64,000 bases of DNA, from assembly GCA_964461265.1 (NCBI GenBank), contig CAYWTS010000001.1:2199-66198 (forward strand), read 5' to 3'. This document shows positions 440 through 48,814 of this stretch, one piece after another. Every line of letters begins with the position of its first letter. Position 1 is the first letter of the stretch. Under the pieces are notes generated by a model, which saw nothing but the letters and a program-made list of their open reading frames with translations, searched no databases and was not told the DNA's origin. This DNA comes from an uncultured Ignavibacteriales bacterium. GTDB lineage: Bacteria; Bacteroidota; Ignavibacteria; Tepidaquicellales; OLB5. Position numbers and translations under genes: made by a program.

Positions 440-514
440 TGGGCAGTACTGGGATCGAACCAGTGACCTCATGCTTGTAAGGCATGCGCTCTGAACCAGC
501 TGAGCTAACCGCCC
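440..514 (-). tRNA. tRNA-Val (anticodon TAC)
   Basis: Reverse strand reads GGGCGGTTAGCTCAGCTGGTTCAGAGCGCATGCCTTACAAGCATGAGGTCACTGGTTCGATCCCAGTACTGCCCA. It has a 7-bp acceptor stem, a GCTC/GAGC D stem, and a CATGC/GCATG anticodon stem with loop CTTACAA. The T stem is ACTGG/CCAGT with loop TTCGATC. CCA is not encoded. Confidence 0.93.
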
Positions 515-2399: not shown

Positions 2400-2471
<72 letters not shown>

Positions 2472-2661
2472 ATAATCACTAATTTATTTCAAAAATACCG
2501 ACTGGCTATTACATTTTCAATTAAGCTTTTTTTGCTAAAAAATATCATATTATACATTTTTCGATGCATTAAGATCATAATTTATTATTCAGGGGGATTA
2601 AAATTAAGTATTTAATTATGTGATATTTAATATTATTTTCGAACTTTCATTTATAATATTA

Positions 2662-3021
2662 ATGAAGAAAAAAATAGCCATAGTTGAGGATGAAGGTATT
2701 GTTGCAATGGATATTAAGAAGAGCTTACTTGCTGAAGGATACGATGTTCCTTTTGTAGTAGATGCAGCGGAAAAAATTATCAGTATACTTGAAAAAAATA
2801 GAGTAGATGTAATAATAATGGATATTGTATTAAACGGTAAAATGAACGGGATTGAAGCAGCAATTCAAATAAAAAGGAATTATAATATCCCGGTAATCTT
2901 TGTCACTGCATTAAATGATGAAGCATTAAAAGAAAGAAGCGCACAATATTACTCATATGGGTATTTTGTTAAACCCTTCGATAACGATTTATTAAACGAG
3001 GCAATTAAGAAAATATTTTAA
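2662..3021 (+). CDS. Single-domain response regulator (CheY-like receiver)
   Basis: The likely start is ATG at 2662 (MKKKIAIVEDEG..). Acidic pocket VEDE, phospho-acceptor context VIIMDIVL, then IFVTA and VKPF. No output domain. Confidence 0.8.
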   Translation: MKKKIAIVEDEGIVAMDIKKSLLAEGYDVPFVVDAAEKIISILEKNRVDVIIMDIVLNGKMNGIEAAIQIKRNYNIPVIFVTALNDEALKERSAQYYSYGYFVKPFDNDLLNEAIKKIF

Positions 3022-3047
3022 TTTACCTTCCATTTTTATGATTTGTT

Positions 3048-4031
3048 TTAATTATTTCCGTTAAATGTATAAATCAGTGTCCCGCTTTCACCAGCTGCCC
3101 AGCCTGAAAATTCATTTATAAACATAATACTCCTCAAAAATTTATTTGTATTAGTATTTTGTTTAATCCAGCTTGTGCCGCCATCTGATGATTTTAATAT
3201 TGTACCCTCTTCACCTGCAGTATATAGCGTATTATCGGAAGAATAACATACAGAGTTAAGCCATGCATTGCTATTTGAAACCATTTGTGACCAGCTTAAA
3301 CCTCCATCGGTCGTTTTTAAAATAATTCCGTTTTGCCCAACACATACACCTGTCTGCTCATTTTTAAAACATATAGAATTCAGGTTATTTTGTACCTGTG
3401 AGTTTAAGATAAACCAATTGCTGCCCCTATTTGTGGTTTTTAAAATTTTACCGTTACTGCCGCAGCTGAAAGCTGCATCACTGCTAATAATATTTATTGA
3501 AAACAGGTCATATGTGGAATCTATATTAACTATGTTCCATGAATTACCCGCGTTACTTGTCATTAAAACCATACCAAAATAACCGCATATCATTCCTAGA
3601 TAGTTTCCATAATAATTAATACTTGTAAGAAAATTATCTGTGCCGCTTGATTGTAGCGACCAGTTTTCACCGCAATCATTAGTCATTAAAATAGTGCCGT
3701 TTGTACCGGTAACATAACCTGTTAAAGAATTAATAAAGTAACAGGAATTAATATTTATGTTTGGAATGTTTATTGGCTTACTTAATAAGTTAAATCCCGA
3801 ATTGGTTGTTTTAAGAACTTGGTTTGAATCGTTTGGATATGTATTGCCCGTTATAAATCCTGTAGTGGTATTTATAAAAAATACCGATTTAAAATTGTTA
3901 GCAGCGTTAGTAGTAATATTATGCCAGATAGGATTATTTACGGGAAGATTAACCGAAGGGTTTTCATCGCGTACACAGGATGAAAAAGCAAATGATAAAA
4001 AAATTATTAATGAAGGGACTCTTAATTTCAT
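3048..4031 (-). CDS. Lipoprotein with Ycf48/BNR-like beta-propeller repeats
   Basis: Signal peptide plus lipobox (LSFAFSSC). Repeated motifs are TNDCGENWS, SNAGNSWN, TTNRGSNWF, TTDGGLSWS and SSDGGTSWI, spaced about 40 aa apart. Confidence 0.7.
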   Translation of the reverse strand: MKLRVPSLIIFLSFAFSSCVRDENPSVNLPVNNPIWHNITTNAANNFKSVFFINTTTGFITGNTYPNDSNQVLKTTNSGFNLLSKPINIPNININSCYFINSLTGYVTGTNGTILMTNDCGENWSLQSSGTDNFLTSINYYGNYLGMICGYFGMVLMTSNAGNSWNIVNIDSTYDLFSINIISSDAAFSCGSNGKILKTTNRGSNWFILNSQVQNNLNSICFKNEQTGVCVGQNGIILKTTDGGLSWSQMVSNSNAWLNSVCYSSDNTLYTAGEEGTILKSSDGGTSWIKQNTNTNKFLRSIMFINEFSGWAAGESGTLIYTFNGNN

Positions 4032-9323: not shown

Positions 9324-12300
9324 TTGAAACTCATTTCACCTAAAATAAAGGTTCTCATTATTGCCTTAACTGCATTTATAGTAATAATAGTTATCACTAA
9401 GATACTTTTATTACTTACACTTAATGGAATTGAGAGTAATTGGGAAATTATTAAGAAAGATAAGTATGACAACATTCAAAACACTGCCGAAAATTTATTT
9501 ATTGAATACGAGGATAGAATAAAAAATTTTTCAGCTGAATTTTTTGCAAACAAAAAGCTGATTTCATCTATTAATTCCCAAAATATCAAGAAAGCTTATG
9601 AAAGCATTAATGAACTGGAAGACATTTCAAAGTATAATATTGAGGTTTACAATCAGAGATTAGAACTAATTTTATTTTCAGGCAGGCAAATACATCCCGA
9701 GGTTTCAAGCCTTCAAAAAGCTATCTCGGGAAATAGTTTTGAGAGGATTGAACATTCAGGTACAATGAGTTATTTAGTGCTTTATGTTCCTTTTTCCTCC
9801 GGTGATTCAGAAAAACAACAGGAGAATGTCTCGGTTCTCGTTATTTCCCGATTACTCGACATTAAATACATTATTAATGAGGAATTGTATTCCGAACCTG
9901 GTATTTCGAATACTTATAAAAAAAATTACGGTGTAAATGTAAGCTTTTTTTTCAGGAATAAGGAATTTTTCACTACCGGTGAGCAAAGTAATAATAATCC
10001 CGATTATCAAAGCTTTGATCTTATATGCAGGGATAAAAATATTCAATGCAGAATAGATGTACCGGTGTTAAACGTAAATTCTTATCAAAGAGAAATAAGT
10101 GAACGTTACGAATTTGTACTTTCAATAATAATTTTTACTGCATCGGTACTCTTTATTATTATTGTTTTTATTATTTCACAAAACATTAAGATTGCTTTAT
10201 TAAAATTATTCGTTAAAATTTTTAGCTTAATTTTATTAAGATATATTATATTATGGATAAATTTTCCTTCGAAGTTATTTACTGTAATAAATATAGATAT
10301 TTTTTCACCTGTATTTTTTGCTTCAGATTTTGGTTTCGGTATTGCAAAATCATTGGGCGAGCTTATGATCACATCACTTTTTCTTGTTATCTGTACTTAT
10401 TTAATATCGTTGTATTTTCTTAATCATGTAAAGCACACTTTTCAGCATACAAATAAAAATCTTTCTAATTTAATTCCGGTCATAGCCGGAATTATTATTT
10501 TATTAGCAATAAACATTTATAATTATATAATACAATCTATAGTATATAATTCGAACATTAATTTTTTTGAACGGACTTCAATTTTAACATCTGACAAACC
10601 TGAATTTGCTGTATTCATTATTGTAATTATTACATTTACTCTAATGGTTTTATTATTATGTTCGGTTTTTGCACTTCGCAGTATACTTTTGCTGAGACAA
10701 AATTTTAAGTTAAAAAAATTATTTAAACGTTATTCATTCTTCATATATTTTACTATTATTTTTATTATAAATTATTTTACGCTCATTTTTAATATTTCCT
10801 TATTTGATACAGGTCCTGGATTTGTTAATTCTTCATTGATAATTCTATTATTAGCTGTTTTTACATATATTCTTTTCAGGAAAATACTAATATTACCAAG
10901 CGTCAGAATTATCTCATTTCCTGTTATTTCTATATTAATACTAATGTCTCTGGTTATTTCTCCTTTGATGTTAATAAATGAGATTACTTCACAGGAGAGC
11001 AAATACCTGGAACAGGAGACTAAAAGACTTGCAACGTCTTCAGGTGAAGAATTGCCCTTTTTAATTATTACAGTACTAGATGATATTATAGAAAAAGACT
11101 TCATCGTTAGCAACTGGAAAGACAAGAATATGATACCAAAACTTGCTTTTAATTTGTGGTCATCCAGCAGGCTTTATTCTGAAAATTTAAATTCTTCAAT
11201 TATCCTTCTTGATACGAATTATCGGATAATAAGCGACTTTAGTATCAGTCCGCTAAATATTAATTCAGATTCCGTTACTAATTACATTATTAAAAATAAA
11301 GCAATTTTTATAAGAGGAGGAGAAGATACTTTACAGTTTGAAGAAGATGAAGACGCTGAAAGCAATATGATAGCTGAAGGTGTGATACAAAATTCCGACT
11401 TAAAATTTTATGCCGGTTTAAGACCAGTGTATTTCCAGCCGGGAGGTAATCCGGACTTTAAGGAATTACTTGGGTATTTAATAGCAGCTATACAATATGA
11501 TACAAAAAGTTACTATTCCGCTAAACATTTTGAGTTTTTCAAAGGCACCAAACCAGACAGATTGACAAATAAATTAACTTCACAGCCTATTTATTCGGAG
11601 TTTTCAGACGGAGAAATGGCAGGAACATCAAATTATGACGTATCAAAATCGCTCATTAAAACACTGGATATGCTTAGAAGCAGTCTTGAGGGAAAAATCG
11701 ATAAATCTACGCTTCGTTTTGACCAGATAGAGAATAATTTATATAAAACATACTTTGTAATAGTTGAACCTGTTAAAAACCAGCCGGAGAAAATTTATGC
11801 AGTAAGCATAAAGGTAAACGACATAAACGGATTTGTATTTTTCTTTTTAAAGTGTCTGCTTGTTTCAACCTTGATTTACCTGATTTTTCTTATCCTTTAT
11901 ACAATTTATATAACCATCAAGCATTTTATAAAATCCAGACGTTTATTACTGTTTGCTTTTGGTTTCAGGGAGAAATTGTTTGTATCTTTTTTTGTTGTTT
12001 CGGTCATACCTGTTCTCATTCTGGCTTTGTACTCCAGGGAATATGTAGAATCCAAGAATAACAAGACAGCTGTAAATGAGATTATTTCGGATCTCAAGCT
12101 TGTGGAACAGTATATAAAAAGCAAACTAGATTGGACAGATATTAAATTAAGAAACAAGGGGGTTGATGACAAACTTATTTTACAATCGAACATATTCGGA
12201 AAAAGTTTCGCTGAATCGGATAAAATATTTAACTTTTTTGTAAAAAATAAATTAACATCTACTACTAACGAAGAACTGTATAAGTCAGATTTACTCGAAA

Positions 12301-28542: not shown

Positions 28543-28616
<74 letters not shown>

Positions 28617-43429: not shown

Positions 43430-43474
43430 AAAAACTACAATAGTCTTGAGACTAAAGTAGTTTTACTATTTAAG

Positions 43475-43849
43475 TGGAGATGCCGGGAGTTGAACCCGGG
43501 TCCGGAAAGAAGACCACCGAAACGCCTACATTCTTAGCTTACATTTTAATTTCACTTCCGGAACGCCTGGTAAGCTTAGCTTTCCGGAAGCTACGCCCGT
43601 AATTTCTCACTCATAGTACCGGGTAATACTACCAGCCAGCTCATCATTCTGACGCCTTGCTGCCATCCGGATAAGCATCGGAAGCGGCAGAAGACGGGCT
43701 GCTTTATTTATTAAGCAGCCAGTGCGTAGTTATAGTTGTCGTTTATTTAAAACGCGCAGCTATTCTCAGGATTAAACCTGACCTGCATACTGCGAGCAGG
43801 GAATGCAGTTTCAGCCATCTATACATCCCGTCGAAACCAAATCATCCCC
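43475..43849 (-). ncRNA. ssrA: tmRNA (SsrA)
   Basis: The reverse strand begins GGGGATGATTTGGTTTCGACGGG and ends ..GGACCCGGGTTCAACTCCCGGCATCTCCA. The acceptor stem GGGGATG/CATCTCC includes the G3:U pair. The T arm is CCGGG TTCAACT CCCGG. The internal tag frame is AAC GAC AAC TAT AAC TAC GCA CTG GCT GCT (43743-43714, ..NDNYNYALAA), followed by TAA TAA. The resume codon is not determined. Confidence 0.9.
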
Positions 43850-45885: not shown

Positions 45886-46641
45886 ATGTATAAAAACAAA
45901 TCACTTAAGACCTTAGGTCTTTATTTCTTTTTACCATTGTTTTCGTTTCTGATTATTTCATCGTGCGGAAAGAAAGATGATACTGGAACAACAGGAAAAG
46001 AAACAGATAAATTGGATAAGAATGAGAACATTACCTTGAATGCAGAAACACCTATTTATGTTGAATTTAAGGTTGAAGGAACAATGGAAGGTACTATAAA
46101 GGGTTGGTATGCCGGGAAGAAGAATAAATCAGAAACAGAACTGAAATCCAAGGGTATGGTAATTAAAGGTTCATTTTATTCGGATGGACAAATGGTTTAT
46201 ATTATTACAGAAGAAGCTTCAGGTGTGAAGATGGGTTTTAAAATGGATGTTAAAGAATGGTCAGAAGGTGAATCTAAAGAAGGACAGGTGGATATAACTT
46301 CATGGCGGGATAAGCTGAAAGAATATACGAAAATCGGTACTGCCGAAGTACTTGGCAAAACCTGTGACATTATGGAAGCTAAAGACAAGCAAACTAAGCT
46401 GTATATTTATAAAGATTTTCTTCCGCTTAAAATGGAAATGAAAAATATGACTATGACCGCCACAAAATATGAAATAGATGTAAAAATCACCGACGAAATG
46501 TTCACCCCTCCAAAAGATGTTGAATTTATTGATTTTGGGGAAATGACAAAAGGTTTAAAGGATTTGAAAAACATGAAACAGGATGACTTAAAAGATAAGA
46601 TGAAGGAACTTGAGGATGTAATGAAGAATTATAAAAAGTAA
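45886..46641 (+). CDS. Lipoprotein of unknown function
   Basis: Signal peptide plus lipobox (LIISSCGKKDD). Lys/Glu-rich mature part. No confident family assignment. Confidence 0.5.
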   Translation: MYKNKSLKTLGLYFFLPLFSFLIISSCGKKDDTGTTGKETDKLDKNENITLNAETPIYVEFKVEGTMEGTIKGWYAGKKNKSETELKSKGMVIKGSFYSDGQMVYIITEEASGVKMGFKMDVKEWSEGESKEGQVDITSWRDKLKEYTKIGTAEVLGKTCDIMEAKDKQTKLYIYKDFLPLKMEMKNMTMTATKYEIDVKITDEMFTPPKDVEFIDFGEMTKGLKDLKNMKQDDLKDKMKELEDVMKNYKK

Positions 46642-46662
46642 GTTCTTAAATATGTTATATAT

Positions 46663-46694
46663 AATCCTCCTCAGTAATTGGGGAGGATTTTTTA
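46663..46694 (+). terminator. Intrinsic terminator after the lipoprotein gene
   Basis: AATCCTCC (46663-46670), an 11-nt loop, then GGAGGATT (46682-46689) running into TTTTTT. Confidence 0.75.
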
Positions 46695-46707
46695 TCTTAT
46701 TTTCGGA

Positions 46708-46730
46708 CATTCCTGCGAAAGCAGGAATCT
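46708..46730. repeat. Left copy of a 23-bp hairpin repeat flanking the GIY-YIG gene
   Basis: CATTCCTGCGAAAGCAGGAATCT. It has an internal 8-bp stem ATTCCTGC/GCAGGAAT with a GAAA loop, and is the exact reverse complement of 47285-47307. Confidence 0.9.
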
Positions 46731-46921
46731 ACAATATTAAATAAATCTGGTTGATTTTCTGTTTACAAACTGGAGGCAATTGGAACGTTAATATTCGATA
46801 ACTTTATATTTGTCAAAATCAGAAAAATATCAATAAATGATATTGTTTTTAAAATTACATTGGTTATGTTATTAACCACAATTTGCAGATATAGGATCTT
46901 TAATATAACTATCATAATTAA

Positions 46922-47266
46922 ATGAAGAATTATTTTGTTTATATTTTAGCTAACAAGAAAGACGGAATACTCTATATGGGATTTACAGATAATATTGTAA
47001 GAAGAGTAGGTGAGCATAAAAATAAAAAATATTCAGGTTTTACTGAAAAATATAATATTAAGAAATTAATTTATTTCGAGAAATATTCAACAGCTGAAGA
47101 AGCTAAAACGAGAGAAAAGCAGATTAAAAGATGGAAACGAGAGTGGAAAATTGAGTTGATTGAAAAAGAAAATCCTGATTGGATAGATTTATCTCAAAAC
47201 TTTCAGAAATATTTAAGTTCTATGGAGTTTTTAGAATTTATACATAAAAATCCAGAATCAATATAA
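46922..47266 (+). CDS. Small GIY-YIG nuclease-family protein (URI domain, COG2827-like)
   Basis: 114 aa: YFVYILANKKDGILYMGFTDNIVRRVGEHKN...KLIYFEKYSTAEEAKTREKQIKRWKREWKIELIEKENPDW. It carries the GIY-YIG beta-hairpin (YVY..YMG), the conserved R and E, and the C-terminal K.W.R.WK..LIE..NP.W tail typical of this small family. Confidence 0.85.
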   Translation: MKNYFVYILANKKDGILYMGFTDNIVRRVGEHKNKKYSGFTEKYNIKKLIYFEKYSTAEEAKTREKQIKRWKREWKIELIEKENPDWIDLSQNFQKYLSSMEFLEFIHKNPESI

Positions 47267-47284
47267 TTTAAAAATGTAATGTGC

Positions 47285-47307
47285 AGATTCCTGCTTTCGC
47301 AGGAATG
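47285..47307. repeat. Right copy (inverted) of the 23-bp hairpin repeat
   Basis: AGATTCCTGCTTTCGCAGGAATG, the exact reverse complement of 46708-46730. It ends 10 nt before the probable ATG of the polymerase gene. Confidence 0.9.
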
Positions 47308-47316
47308 CTTTGTAAT

Positions 47317-48654
47317 ATGTACACCACCGGCAAAATAGAATTCGACAGGAACACGCTTGATTCTAAAAAAGGCTCATGGGTGCTTTTTGCCGATATGAAC
47401 AGTTATTTCGCAACCGTTGAGCAGCAATATAACTACTGGCTTAGAGGCAGGCCTGTTGGTGTATGTGTTTATACTGGTAAATACGGTTGTGTAATAGCAG
47501 CCTCAATCGAAGCTAAGCAAAAGGGCATAAAAACCGGGATGAGGCTGAATGATGCCATGAAAATATGTCCCGACCTTGTTCCTGTAGAAACCCATCCCCA
47601 GCGTTACAGGGAAGTTCATAAGAAATTCGTCGCAGTTCTTGAAAAGTATTCGGATTCGGTTATACCCAAAAGTATCGATGAAGCGGTAGTAGATATTTCC
47701 GGATGTGAGCTTTATTTCAAAGACCCTGTTAAAGTTGCACGGCAGATAAAACTGGATATTAAAAATGAAATCGGCGATTGGATTAAATGTTCAATCGGTA
47801 TAGCTCCAAATGCCTTTCTTGCCAAGTTTGCCTCAGAGATTCAGAAACCGGACGGGCTGGTTCTTATTACACATGAAAATATTGACGAAATACTTTCAAA
47901 AGTGAAATTAACCGACCTGCCAGGTATAAAAGCCGGTATGGCAAAACGTTTGTTCTGGGGAGGGATAAAAACACCTGTCCAGTTACGCCACGCCGACCCA
48001 TACAAAATAAAAGACTCATGCCACAGCATTGTTGGACTTTACTGGCATTACCGACTAAACTTTAAGGAAGTTGACCAGATAGGGCACAGGTATAAATCTA
48101 TGCAATCAATGAGGCAGGTATCACGTGAACAGAGGAAATCGATAGAAACGCTTAACCAGGTTTTTCTGCGGCTCTGTATGACGCTTGAGAAGCGTATGGT
48201 GAAGGAAGATGTGTTCTGTAATGAAATCACATGTTATATTACTTATGATGGAGGTTACTCGTGGAGCGACCATGTAATTACACGAAAGCCAATACAGGAT
48301 GGAATTGAGTTAATGAAGCTTATTCAGCTTCACATGGCTAAATACCGTGAAATACATAAATGCGAACCGATTATAAATAATAACATAACAAGCATGGGTG
48401 TAACGGTCGATAGACTTACTCACAGGGAAGTTGTCCAGTATGAAATGTTCAGTAAAGATGTATCAAAAGATTATTTGCGTAAAATAGTATATAAAATAAA
48501 AGATAAATATGGTTCGGATATAATTATGCGTGCTATTGAATTAAAAGACGAAGACGTGCTTAAAGATGTTATAGGCTTCGGCTCGGTAAAAGATCTGCAT
48601 AACGTGCCCGGTGCCGAAAGGGAAGAAAAGATTACATATGAGATGGAGAGGTGA
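47317..48654 (+). CDS. Y-family DNA polymerase (DinB/ImpB-UmuC-like translesion polymerase)
   Basis: The probable start is ATG at 47317 (MYTTGKIEF..). VLFADMNSYFATVEQ (catalytic Asp), SIDEAVVDISG (catalytic Asp/Glu), IGIAPNAFLAKFASEIQKPDGL and LTDLPGIKAGMAKRL (HhH). The track start at 47281 reads through the hairpin repeat. Confidence 0.85.
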   Translation: MYTTGKIEFDRNTLDSKKGSWVLFADMNSYFATVEQQYNYWLRGRPVGVCVYTGKYGCVIAASIEAKQKGIKTGMRLNDAMKICPDLVPVETHPQRYREVHKKFVAVLEKYSDSVIPKSIDEAVVDISGCELYFKDPVKVARQIKLDIKNEIGDWIKCSIGIAPNAFLAKFASEIQKPDGLVLITHENIDEILSKVKLTDLPGIKAGMAKRLFWGGIKTPVQLRHADPYKIKDSCHSIVGLYWHYRLNFKEVDQIGHRYKSMQSMRQVSREQRKSIETLNQVFLRLCMTLEKRMVKEDVFCNEITCYITYDGGYSWSDHVITRKPIQDGIELMKLIQLHMAKYREIHKCEPIINNNITSMGVTVDRLTHREVVQYEMFSKDVSKDYLRKIVYKIKDKYGSDIIMRAIELKDEDVLKDVIGFGSVKDLHNVPGAEREEKITYEMER

Positions 48655-48688
48655 GATATATAAGACTTAACATTATTCTACCAAGTAA

Positions 48689-48814
48689 TCATTTTTTAAG
48701 TTCTTTAATCAAATGCGGGATATTAATTTTAACAGTATCCCATACAACTTTAAATTCAATTTCCTCATATGCGGTAAAGTTACTTAAACAGGCTAAAAAT
48801 AATAGGTAAACTAA
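48689..48814 (-). pseudogene. 3'-terminal remnant of a HepT/DUF86-type toxin gene
   Basis: A 41-codon open frame bounded upstream by TAG (48815-48817). It ends ..SNFTAYEEIEFKVVWDTVKINIPHLIKELKK*. This resembles the C-terminus of DUF86/HepT proteins (..H.Y..vd.eivW..v..dlP.L...i..il). There is no start, no N-terminal part and no MNT partner. Confidence 0.4.

Follow-up and report, generated by a model that had tools for sequence, protein, structure and literature searches.

A likely Ssn-family cassette, with a GIY-YIG gene between inward-pointing hairpins, in an uncultured Ignavibacteriales bacterium

We analysed a stretch of 64,000 nucleotides (the window) from an uncultured Ignavibacteriales bacterium (GenBank assembly GCA_964461265.1, contig CAYWTS010000001.1, positions 2,199 to 66,198 of the forward strand). 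Between a lipoprotein-like gene and dinB, the gene for a Y-family (DinB-type) polymerase, lies a 600-bp unit that holds a small GIY-YIG nuclease gene, here called ssn, bracketed by two inverted hairpins (Table 1). The unit is very likely a cassette of the Ssn family, that is, a GIY-YIG gene placed between inward-pointing copies of its cognate NTS/SRM-type hairpin.

The two ends of the unit, 46708-46730 (CATTCCTGCGAAAGCAGGAATCT) and 47285-47307, are exact reverse complements over 23 nt, and the inverted repeat lengthens to 26 nt at 96% identity with one mismatch (46708-46733 and 47282-47307). Folded as single-stranded DNA (ssDNA), each copy forms an 8-bp stem with a 4-nt loop (-7.6 to -9.1 kcal/mol, z of about -4.3 to -4.6). 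The 20-nt palindrome core occurs at exactly two sites in the 64-kb window, even with up to three mismatches, where 100 shuffles gave an expectation of 0. On its 5' side the left hairpin carries GAC (consensus GTC) and on its 3' side CTACA, retaining in C46729 the position most critical for binding in Neisseria; the right hairpin, read on the minus strand, carries AGC (consensus GTC) and CTGCA, again with the critical C.

The sole credible gene between the hairpins is ssn; a 50-amino-acid open reading frame (ORF) on the minus strand of the AT-rich spacer looks spurious, and the 64-kb window contains no second ssn copy. GC content is 26% in the cassette, 34% in the window, and 33% and 40% in the two adjoining genes. 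The promoter and 5' untranslated region of ssn presumably sit in the long 5' spacer, in which promoter-like sites were not above shuffles, RNA folding gave no significant structure (z = -1.5) and no conservation was found with the equivalent spacers of two related loci, L143 and L144. Two candidate decayed half-hairpins in this spacer (46779-46794 and 46891-46906) were judged unconvincing. For the hairpins and the spacer, Rfam searches, at gathering thresholds on the window and at permissive thresholds on 46600-47400, gave only sub-threshold matches and no intron RNA, so that these elements belong to no known RNA family.

On the left, the lipoprotein-like gene (45886-46641) ends at an intrinsic-terminator-like hairpin, which forms the resident left edge of the insertion site and lies outside the cassette. 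On the right, 9 nt separate the end of the hairpin from the dinB ATG. A GTG ORF at 47281 opens with MQIPAFAGMLCNMYTT (MQIPAFAGM), a read-through of the right hairpin that adds the extension MQIPAFAGMLCN to DinB; one public gene call uses this 457-amino-acid version and three use the 445-amino-acid one. Because the N-termini of DinB proteins from relatives align at 47317, the ATG there is the true start, and hairpin read-through peptides such as IPAFAGM can be seen to lengthen adjoining genes falsely. An earlier note on this DNA, made from its letters, had described the exact 23-nt inverted repeat, the two hairpins, the lone 114-amino-acid GIY-YIG ORF, the terminator just upstream, the polymerase start just downstream and the peptide IPAFAGM from translation through the right copy. 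All of these stand except the distance to the polymerase ATG, given there as 10 nt and measured here as 9 nt. We found no mention of the IPAFAGM peptide in the literature.

Table 1 Features of the cassette and its insertion site (window coordinates)
Feature	Position	Strand	Remarks
Intrinsic-terminator-like hairpin and T-run	46663..46694	+	Hairpin 46663-46689; 12-pair stem, 5 GC pairs
Predicted Ssn cleavage zone, left	46697..46706	+	A few nt 5' of the left motif; by homology only (PMC11893778)
Left Ssn-related hairpin (NTS/SRM type)	46705..46733	+	Motif sense on the + strand; points into the cassette
Left palindrome	46709-46728	+	ATTCCTGC GAAA GCAGGAAT
AT-rich 5' spacer, left hairpin to start codon	46731..46921	+	22.5% GC; about 190 nt
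ssn gene, 114-amino-acid single-domain GIY-YIG endonuclease	46922..47266	+	Pfam PF01541, E 1.2e-15
Right Ssn-related hairpin	47282..47310	-	Motif sense on the - strand; points into the cassette; palindrome 47287-47306
Predicted Ssn cleavage zone, right	47309..47318	-	A few nt 5' of the right motif, in the 9-nt gap before dinB; by homology only
Y-family (DinB-type) polymerase gene	47317..48654	+	Pfam IMS, E 3e-40; right boundary of the insertion site

The gene-plus-hairpin system and the NTS-ssnA-NTS layout were already described in 2025 (Chenal et al., Nat Commun 2025, PMC11893778). SsnA of N. meningitidis is a 94-amino-acid single-domain GIY-YIG protein (CDD cd10448, GIY-YIG_unchar_3) that binds its target, the 28-nt hairpin motif NTS (CGTCATTCCCGCGMAVGCGGGAATCYRG), solely as ssDNA and cuts a few nucleotides 5' of it; double-stranded DNA (dsDNA), RNA and the complementary strand are non-substrates. 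Biochemistry on the SsnA proteins of N. meningitidis, N. elongata, N. wadsworthii and Wolbachia found ssDNA-only binding and 5' cutting. Binding is determined by the palindrome and, above all, by the C just 3' of it, whereas cleavage is set mainly, in N. meningitidis, by the three nucleotides 5' of the palindrome; Y6A, Y17A and E64A each abolish cutting, and in that species SsnA reduces transformation by NTS-bearing DNA about five-fold. The same paper (PMC11893778) defined homologues loosely (E < 1e-10 over > 75% of SsnA) or strictly (>=60% identity) and SRM hairpins by the search pattern HGTCWYN(0-2)YYVSBRHN(0-5)WNVSBRGN(0-2)RNCYNB. Its authors found one or more SRMs near 71% of homologues and SRMs on both sides of 42%, and they likened the layout, as a hypothesis, to an insertion sequence, to IS200/IS605 and to REP/BIME.

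Judged by its sequence, the window protein is a clear homologue of the Ssn family. Pfam finds GIY-YIG (PF01541) alone, at residues 3-76 of 114, and no separate DNA-binding domain. As reference for SsnA we took the protein encoded at the N. gonorrhoeae ssnA locus (L182) in place of that of N. meningitidis; the gonococcal numbering reproduces the published 94 amino acids, Y6, Y17 and E64, and the locus lies among canonical NTS hairpins. The two proteins are 46% identical over 85 of about 94 residues without a gap (pairwise E 4e-31), and tblastn with the window protein in 7.3 Gb of sequence recovered the gonococcal locus at E 7e-21, which makes the window protein an SsnA homologue by the loose definition of PMC11893778. 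SsnA residues Y6, Y17 and E64 align to Y7, Y18 and E65, and Y7, Y18, R28, H32, E65 and N84 are all intact in the window protein and invariant in family alignments of 25 and 30 sequences. The GIY and YIG motifs, the catalytic Arg, His, Glu and Asn and the alpha/beta fold place the protein in the GIY-YIG superfamily. Among the 120 best of 1,331 homologues, all contain PF01541 (a few together with PF10544), and most are about 95 amino acids long.

An AlphaFold model (pLDDT 88, pTM 0.80) gives three strands and helices in a GIY-YIG core, followed by two short, less confident C-terminal helices. The closest solved structures are UPF0213 (PDB 1zg2 and 1ywl), Slx1 and the UvrC N-domain (sequence E 3.5e-6, Foldseek E 5e-4); no Ssn structure was found in the PDB copy searched. 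Searches of NCBIfam, PADLOC and PHROGs returned no specific family, with no defence-family match in PADLOC and no PHROG match.

The window protein ends in a C-terminal tail of about 20-24 amino acids (residues 91-114; region listed as 47006-47263) with the pattern L-x-x-x-E-x-L-x-L-x-F, predicted at lower confidence to form two short helices. This tail is common to a small subclade (the window protein, L128, L143, L144 and P0006) and is not present in the majority of 94-97 amino acids, which includes Neisseria SsnA. As for the gonococcal reference, L182:1492-1773 belongs to N. gonorrhoeae NZ_CP119142.1, a 2.17-Mb record; two gonococcal chromosomes are filed as plasmids in PLSDB. Ahead of the GIY motif, the ssnA frame of NZ_CP119142.1 offers none of the start codons ATG, GTG and TTG: an ATT stands at the expected start of the 94-amino-acid protein, and a nearby ATG is out of frame.

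The hairpin also has a counterpart in Neisseria, being the NTS core (ATTCCCGCGAAAGCGGGAAT) with one compensatory stem change, C-G to T-A at the sixth pair. A scan for the 20-mer, covering one genome per species with about one chance match expected in the collection, found exact copies in at least 120 genome stretches from many phyla (L005-L124, 132 copies). Hosts among the matches listed include Flavobacteriia, Ignavibacteria, Nitrospirota, Planctomycetota, Chloroflexota, Rickettsia and other Pseudomonadota, Thermodesulfobacteriota, Elusimicrobia, Omnitrophota, Spirochaetia, Myxococcota and a metagenome-assembled genome of Nanoarchaeota. Most listed copies lie at gene edges or in intergenic DNA, and in 130 of them the palindrome is preceded by G (86%), T (86%) and C (88%) and followed by C (92%), Y, A (79%) and G (55%). 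The resulting flank consensus, YGTC...CYAG, is that of the published motif, CGTC...CYRG (PMC11893778). Stem and flanks together indicate that the hairpin is an NTS variant.

Several observations weigh against assigning the unit to the Ssn family. Identity to SsnA, at 46%, falls below the strict cut-off of 60% (PMC11893778); neither window hairpin fits the published SRM pattern, which has 0 matches in the window; both lack the 5' GTC, having GAC and AGC instead; and only two copies exist in 64 kb, both adjoining ssn. The NTS consensus likewise matches the window solely at 5 and 6 mismatches. Our own implementation of the SRM pattern matches the Neisseria NTS and 0 of the 110 listed GTC-flanked copies of the T-A stem variant. 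Because this positive control excludes the whole stem variant, the mismatch reflects the published pattern and not a missing motif. Published counts of motifs and motif-flanked genes are probably too low, since the widespread T-A variant is invisible to the pattern. As the 5' GTC is the main determinant of cleavage, not of binding, in N. meningitidis, the window hairpins may be bound yet poorly cut, or the enzyme may have another flank preference. A Neisseria-like genome-wide role is not evident here, because the two copies in 64 kb both stand by ssn.

Solo motifs vary in presence between close relatives. L125, whose DinB is 94% identical to that of the window, has a motif of another stem type with consensus flanks directly after the dinB stop (L125:1160-1192, ttgtcATTCCGCACTTGATGCGGAATctaatc), and the window has no such hairpin at 48655-48700. 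We also observed that Logan contig SRR12686701_54401 (L002), from an independent assembly of the same strain, starts at window position 46710, inside the left hairpin; such a break is expected if the hairpin is repeated elsewhere in the genome or community.

The arrangement of gene and hairpins in the window is typical of the Ssn family. Among the matches listed, four of the five hairpin-selected stretches that carry an Ssn gene have a hairpin no more than 62 bp from it, for which a simple estimate at about 124/8000 per locus gives a chance probability of about 3e-7. L143, the closest long-tailed homologue (67% identity, 114 amino acids), has the identical 20-mer on both sides, inward-facing and with GTC flanks; L144 (60% identity) is flanked by an NTS-like hairpin to its left and by the canonical Neisseria core to its right; and L091 and L087 share the inward-facing layout on both sides. 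In 29 ssn loci found independently in a viral-contig collection, the nearest hairpins face inward on both sides in 17, are on one side or direct in 8, and are absent or of another type in 4, a tabulation that supports the association between hairpins and GIY-YIG genes suggested earlier. Hairpins at these loci mostly lie about 20-60 nt upstream of the gene (up to about 120) and 25-130 nt downstream. Stem sequences vary by protein clade (ATTCCCGC, ATCCCCGC, ACCCCGG, GCCCCGG and TTGCCCGG). The window departs from this picture solely in its degenerate 5' flanks and in a 5' spacer that is long (190 nt) and has neither conservation nor structure.

In all four cassettes with long-tailed proteins (the window, L128, L143 and L144), a small sample, ssn shares its strand with both neighbours, and the cassettes have gone into very short gaps within dense runs of co-directional genes. 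A more distant GIY-YIG gene at L060:2392-2700 (35% identity, UPF0213/YhbQ-like) is followed, to about 2850, by several copies of another palindromic repeat, such as TTCGACTACGCTCAACGCTCA and TGAGCGTAGTCGAAA, and may be a separate association of a GIY-YIG gene with a repeat.

Relatives of the locus were found by searching with the window DinB protein. Six metagenome loci with the order queC-lipoprotein-dinB-etfB (DinB 66-81% identical) have the lipoprotein gene and dinB directly adjacent, 0-100 bp apart, which agrees with the earlier reading of the unit as an insertion into this intergenic spacer and with the empty sites anticipated there. In L129 and L142 an equivalent terminator is kept, followed by about 13 nt to the dinB ATG. 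In one of the six, L128, the junction of queE and queC, which is 3 nt long in the window and an overlap in L141, holds another ssn (54.5% identical) bracketed by other inverted hairpins. These comparisons indicate that the cassette is a discrete module inserted, in this lineage, between the terminator and the dinB start codon; it can be placed solely between those two points because the intergenic DNA of the relatives is too diverged for exact boundaries. Neither the window cassette nor L128 nor the paired elements described below showed a target-site duplication.

In L128, ssn occupies 2118-2459, and the sole canonical in-frame start for queC is an ATG within the 3' end of ssn (QueC ORF 2446-3174). 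This ORF reads through the right hairpin (MVSIENRDPRLRGEILDK, then AVILVSGGMDS), so that the hairpin-encoded peptide may here be a genuine N-terminal extension of QueC and not an annotation artefact.

Between L170 and L163, two loci of the viral collection with shared flanking genes, the block from GTC to GAC between the motifs is collinear while both flanks are reverse-complemented; the NTS-to-NTS module is therefore inverted relative to its surroundings. The motif-bounded block in L163 and L166 is likewise inverted relative to both flanking genes when set against L170, L155, L159 and L161. Further relatives at the same site have other hairpin types (ACCCCGG and GCCCCGG). The alignments point to inversion and replacement of the module at this site. 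The comparative data thus show gain, loss and inversion of the unit, whatever catalyses these events. With empty sites, a second site at queE|queC and an inverted block, the cassette behaves as a discrete insertable module.

Convergent hairpin pairs that enclose 30-89 bp of unrelated sequence are present in Rickettsia, Polaribacter and others. These gene-less pairs (L032:854-982, L045:2107-2235, L052:4582-4683, L095:6348-6417 and L087:3420-3515) resemble miniature cassettes, like Neisseria intergenic mosaic elements (NIMEs), and all close pairs on opposite strands are convergent. L112 and L118 have tandem direct hairpin arrays instead.

Judging from its characterised homologues, the Ssn protein would bind the folded hairpin only when the DNA is single-stranded, would recognise the stem sequence together with the C immediately 3' of it, and would cut the motif strand a few nucleotides 5' of the motif. 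The predicted cuts would fall outside the cassette, to the left of 46708 on the top strand and to the right of 47307 on the bottom strand. One-strand excision of the IS200/IS605 kind is not possible, because inverted hairpins leave a single cleavable motif on each strand. The earlier note had proposed that the GIY-YIG protein may recognise or nick the hairpin, and this agrees with the biochemistry of the SsnA homologues (PMC11893778); its further suggestion, that the protein propagates or maintains the hairpins, stays a hypothesis. The note's remark that no characterised system joins a GIY-YIG protein to a hairpin repeat is out of date, since that paper describes the Ssn/SRM system. The analogy that the note drew with IS200/IS605 and REP/RAYT had already been raised in the discussion of PMC11893778; inverted hairpins do not suit excision as in IS200/IS605, for which both ends must be cut on one strand.

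What the cassette does can be read in three further ways, the first of which extends the Ssn-cassette reading without excluding it. Ssn may itself be a transposase or homing enzyme that acts on ssDNA hairpins, so that the unit is an autonomous mobile element and the solo and paired hairpins its non-autonomous derivatives. The empty sites in six relatives and the second cassette elsewhere in the gene cluster speak for such an element, as do the block inverted against conserved flanks, the low GC of the cassette, the miniature-element-like convergent pairs around 30-89 bp of unrelated sequence, the identical 20-mer across many phyla and the Logan contig end inside the left hairpin, which suggests a repeat-caused assembly break; the idea was also raised in the discussion of PMC11893778. 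However, GIY-YIG enzymes cleave by hydrolysis and are not known to transfer strands, the inverted hairpins with one cleavable motif per strand rule out IS200/IS605-like excision, no target-site duplication was seen at any of the sites named above, and we found no genome with near-identical cassettes at more than one site. The inversion could also stem from ordinary recombination between inverted repeats, and the insertion from host recombination or transformation. We therefore regard as only tentative the proposal of a new class of mobile element in which Ssn drives insertion, inversion and replacement at intergenic sites and the hairpins in more than 15 phyla are non-autonomous offspring. Were it true, the degenerate 5' flanks would mark the window copy as immobilised or as protected from self-cleavage.

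It is equally possible, and equally doubtful, that the cassette is a domesticated host system as in Neisseria, one that restricts incoming motif-bearing ssDNA (in transformation, conjugation or ssDNA phage infection), with the window copies as two members of a genome-wide repeat family. The five-fold effect of SsnA on transformation in N. meningitidis (PMC11893778), the dispersal of motifs in other genomes, mostly at gene edges or between genes, and the different solo motif right after dinB in the relative with 94%-identical DinB are consistent with this. Yet the 64-kb window has no solo copy, PADLOC returned no defence-family match, and six relatives lack the cassette, so that any host role would be recent or dispensable. 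Far less probable is that the hairpins are terminators, insulators or operators around an acquired GIY-YIG gene whose product is a dsDNA homing or repair nuclease. The right copy does score weakly as a terminator, homing endonucleases of the GIY-YIG type are frequent among mobile genes, and the closest solved folds are UPF0213, Slx1 and UvrC. But the right copy is followed by a poor T-run and the left by none; terminators would not retain oriented YGTC/CYAG flanks across more than 15 phyla, nor would their stems co-vary with the clade of the adjoining protein. The protein moreover has no DNA-binding domain of the sort that homing enzymes need, scores 15.4 bits against the NCBIfam group I intron endonuclease TIGR01453 (cut-off 56), and has homologues that act solely on ssDNA (PMC11893778). 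For the Ssn-family cassette, recent acquisition of a module that may be selfish seems to us likelier than an established role in the host, because of the missing solo copies in 64 kb and the relatives without the cassette.

Set against the SsnA/NTS system itself, the window unit agrees in its single-domain GIY-YIG protein (about 95-115 amino acids across the two, with the same catalytic residues and gap-free 46% identity), in the 8-bp stem, 4-nt GAAA loop and critical 3' C, in the motif on both sides of the gene, and in the dispersal of motif copies through many genomes. It differs in a T-A stem pair, owing to which the published search patterns for dRS3, NTS and SRM miss the hairpin, in 5' triplets GAC/AGC in place of the GTC cleavage determinant, in a 5' spacer of 190 nt where 20-60 nt is usual, and in the extra C-terminal tail of about 24 amino acids. 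The window also has a simple inward-facing pair where the gonococcal gene lies amid complex arrays, has no solo copies in 64 kb, and comes from an uncultured low-GC bacterium. The dRS3 repeat is a 20-bp palindrome of the same ATTCC...GGAAT type, but reads ATTCCC-N8-GGGAAT, whereas the window has T/A at the sixth pair. NIMEs are non-coding arrays. They find a likeness in the hairpin pairs around short unrelated segments in other genomes, unlike the window hairpins, which enclose a nuclease gene.

The IS200/IS605 (TnpA) and REP/RAYT-BIME systems likewise combine a small nuclease gene with extragenic hairpins recognised as ssDNA, with dispersed solo hairpins and no target-site duplication. The window enzyme, however, is a hydrolytic GIY-YIG protein and not a covalent HUH tyrosine enzyme (Y1_Tnp), and its hairpins are inverted instead of same-strand, with one cleavable end per strand; since the sole cassette gene is GIY-YIG and the hairpins are inverted, membership of either system is ruled out. 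GIY-YIG homing endonucleases such as I-TevI share the GIY-YIG core and presence/absence polymorphism, whereas the window protein has no DNA-binding domain, lies outside any intron or intein and has Ssn relatives that act on ssDNA hairpins instead of dsDNA homing sites. Against a homing endonuclease stand the lack of an extra domain, the TIGR01453 score below cut-off, the lack of a PHROG match and the lack of an Rfam intron. A classical terminal-inverted-repeat insertion sequence was also rejected: inverted repeats are present, but there is no transposase domain and no target-site duplication. Single-domain GIY-YIG proteins of the UPF0213 (YhbQ-type) group and the Slx1 nuclease domain are the nearest solved structures, yet the window protein belongs to a distinct subfamily at about 27% identity, and an association with hairpin repeats is undescribed for UPF0213 and Slx1.

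Elsewhere in the window we noted an ordinary tmRNA (43472-43849, minus strand) and tRNAs at 440-514 (minus), 2400-2471 (minus) and 28543-28616 (plus). A separate hairpin at 10473-10492 (ATTCCGGTCATAGCCGGAAT) has the look of an ordinary terminator, with a T-rich run behind it; it is not an Ssn motif because it has no C flanks.

Beyond what was described in PMC11893778, this locus contributes an overlooked stem variant, degenerate 5' flanks and comparative evidence of an insertable and invertible unit. The enzyme-site pair with altered 5' flanking nucleotides could be of interest for the use of Ssn enzymes as ssDNA tools. Mobility of the NTS-ssnA-NTS arrangement was merely hypothesised in PMC11893778; the empty sites, the second site in the gene cluster and the motif-bounded inverted block reported here now give clear comparative evidence for a movable unit.

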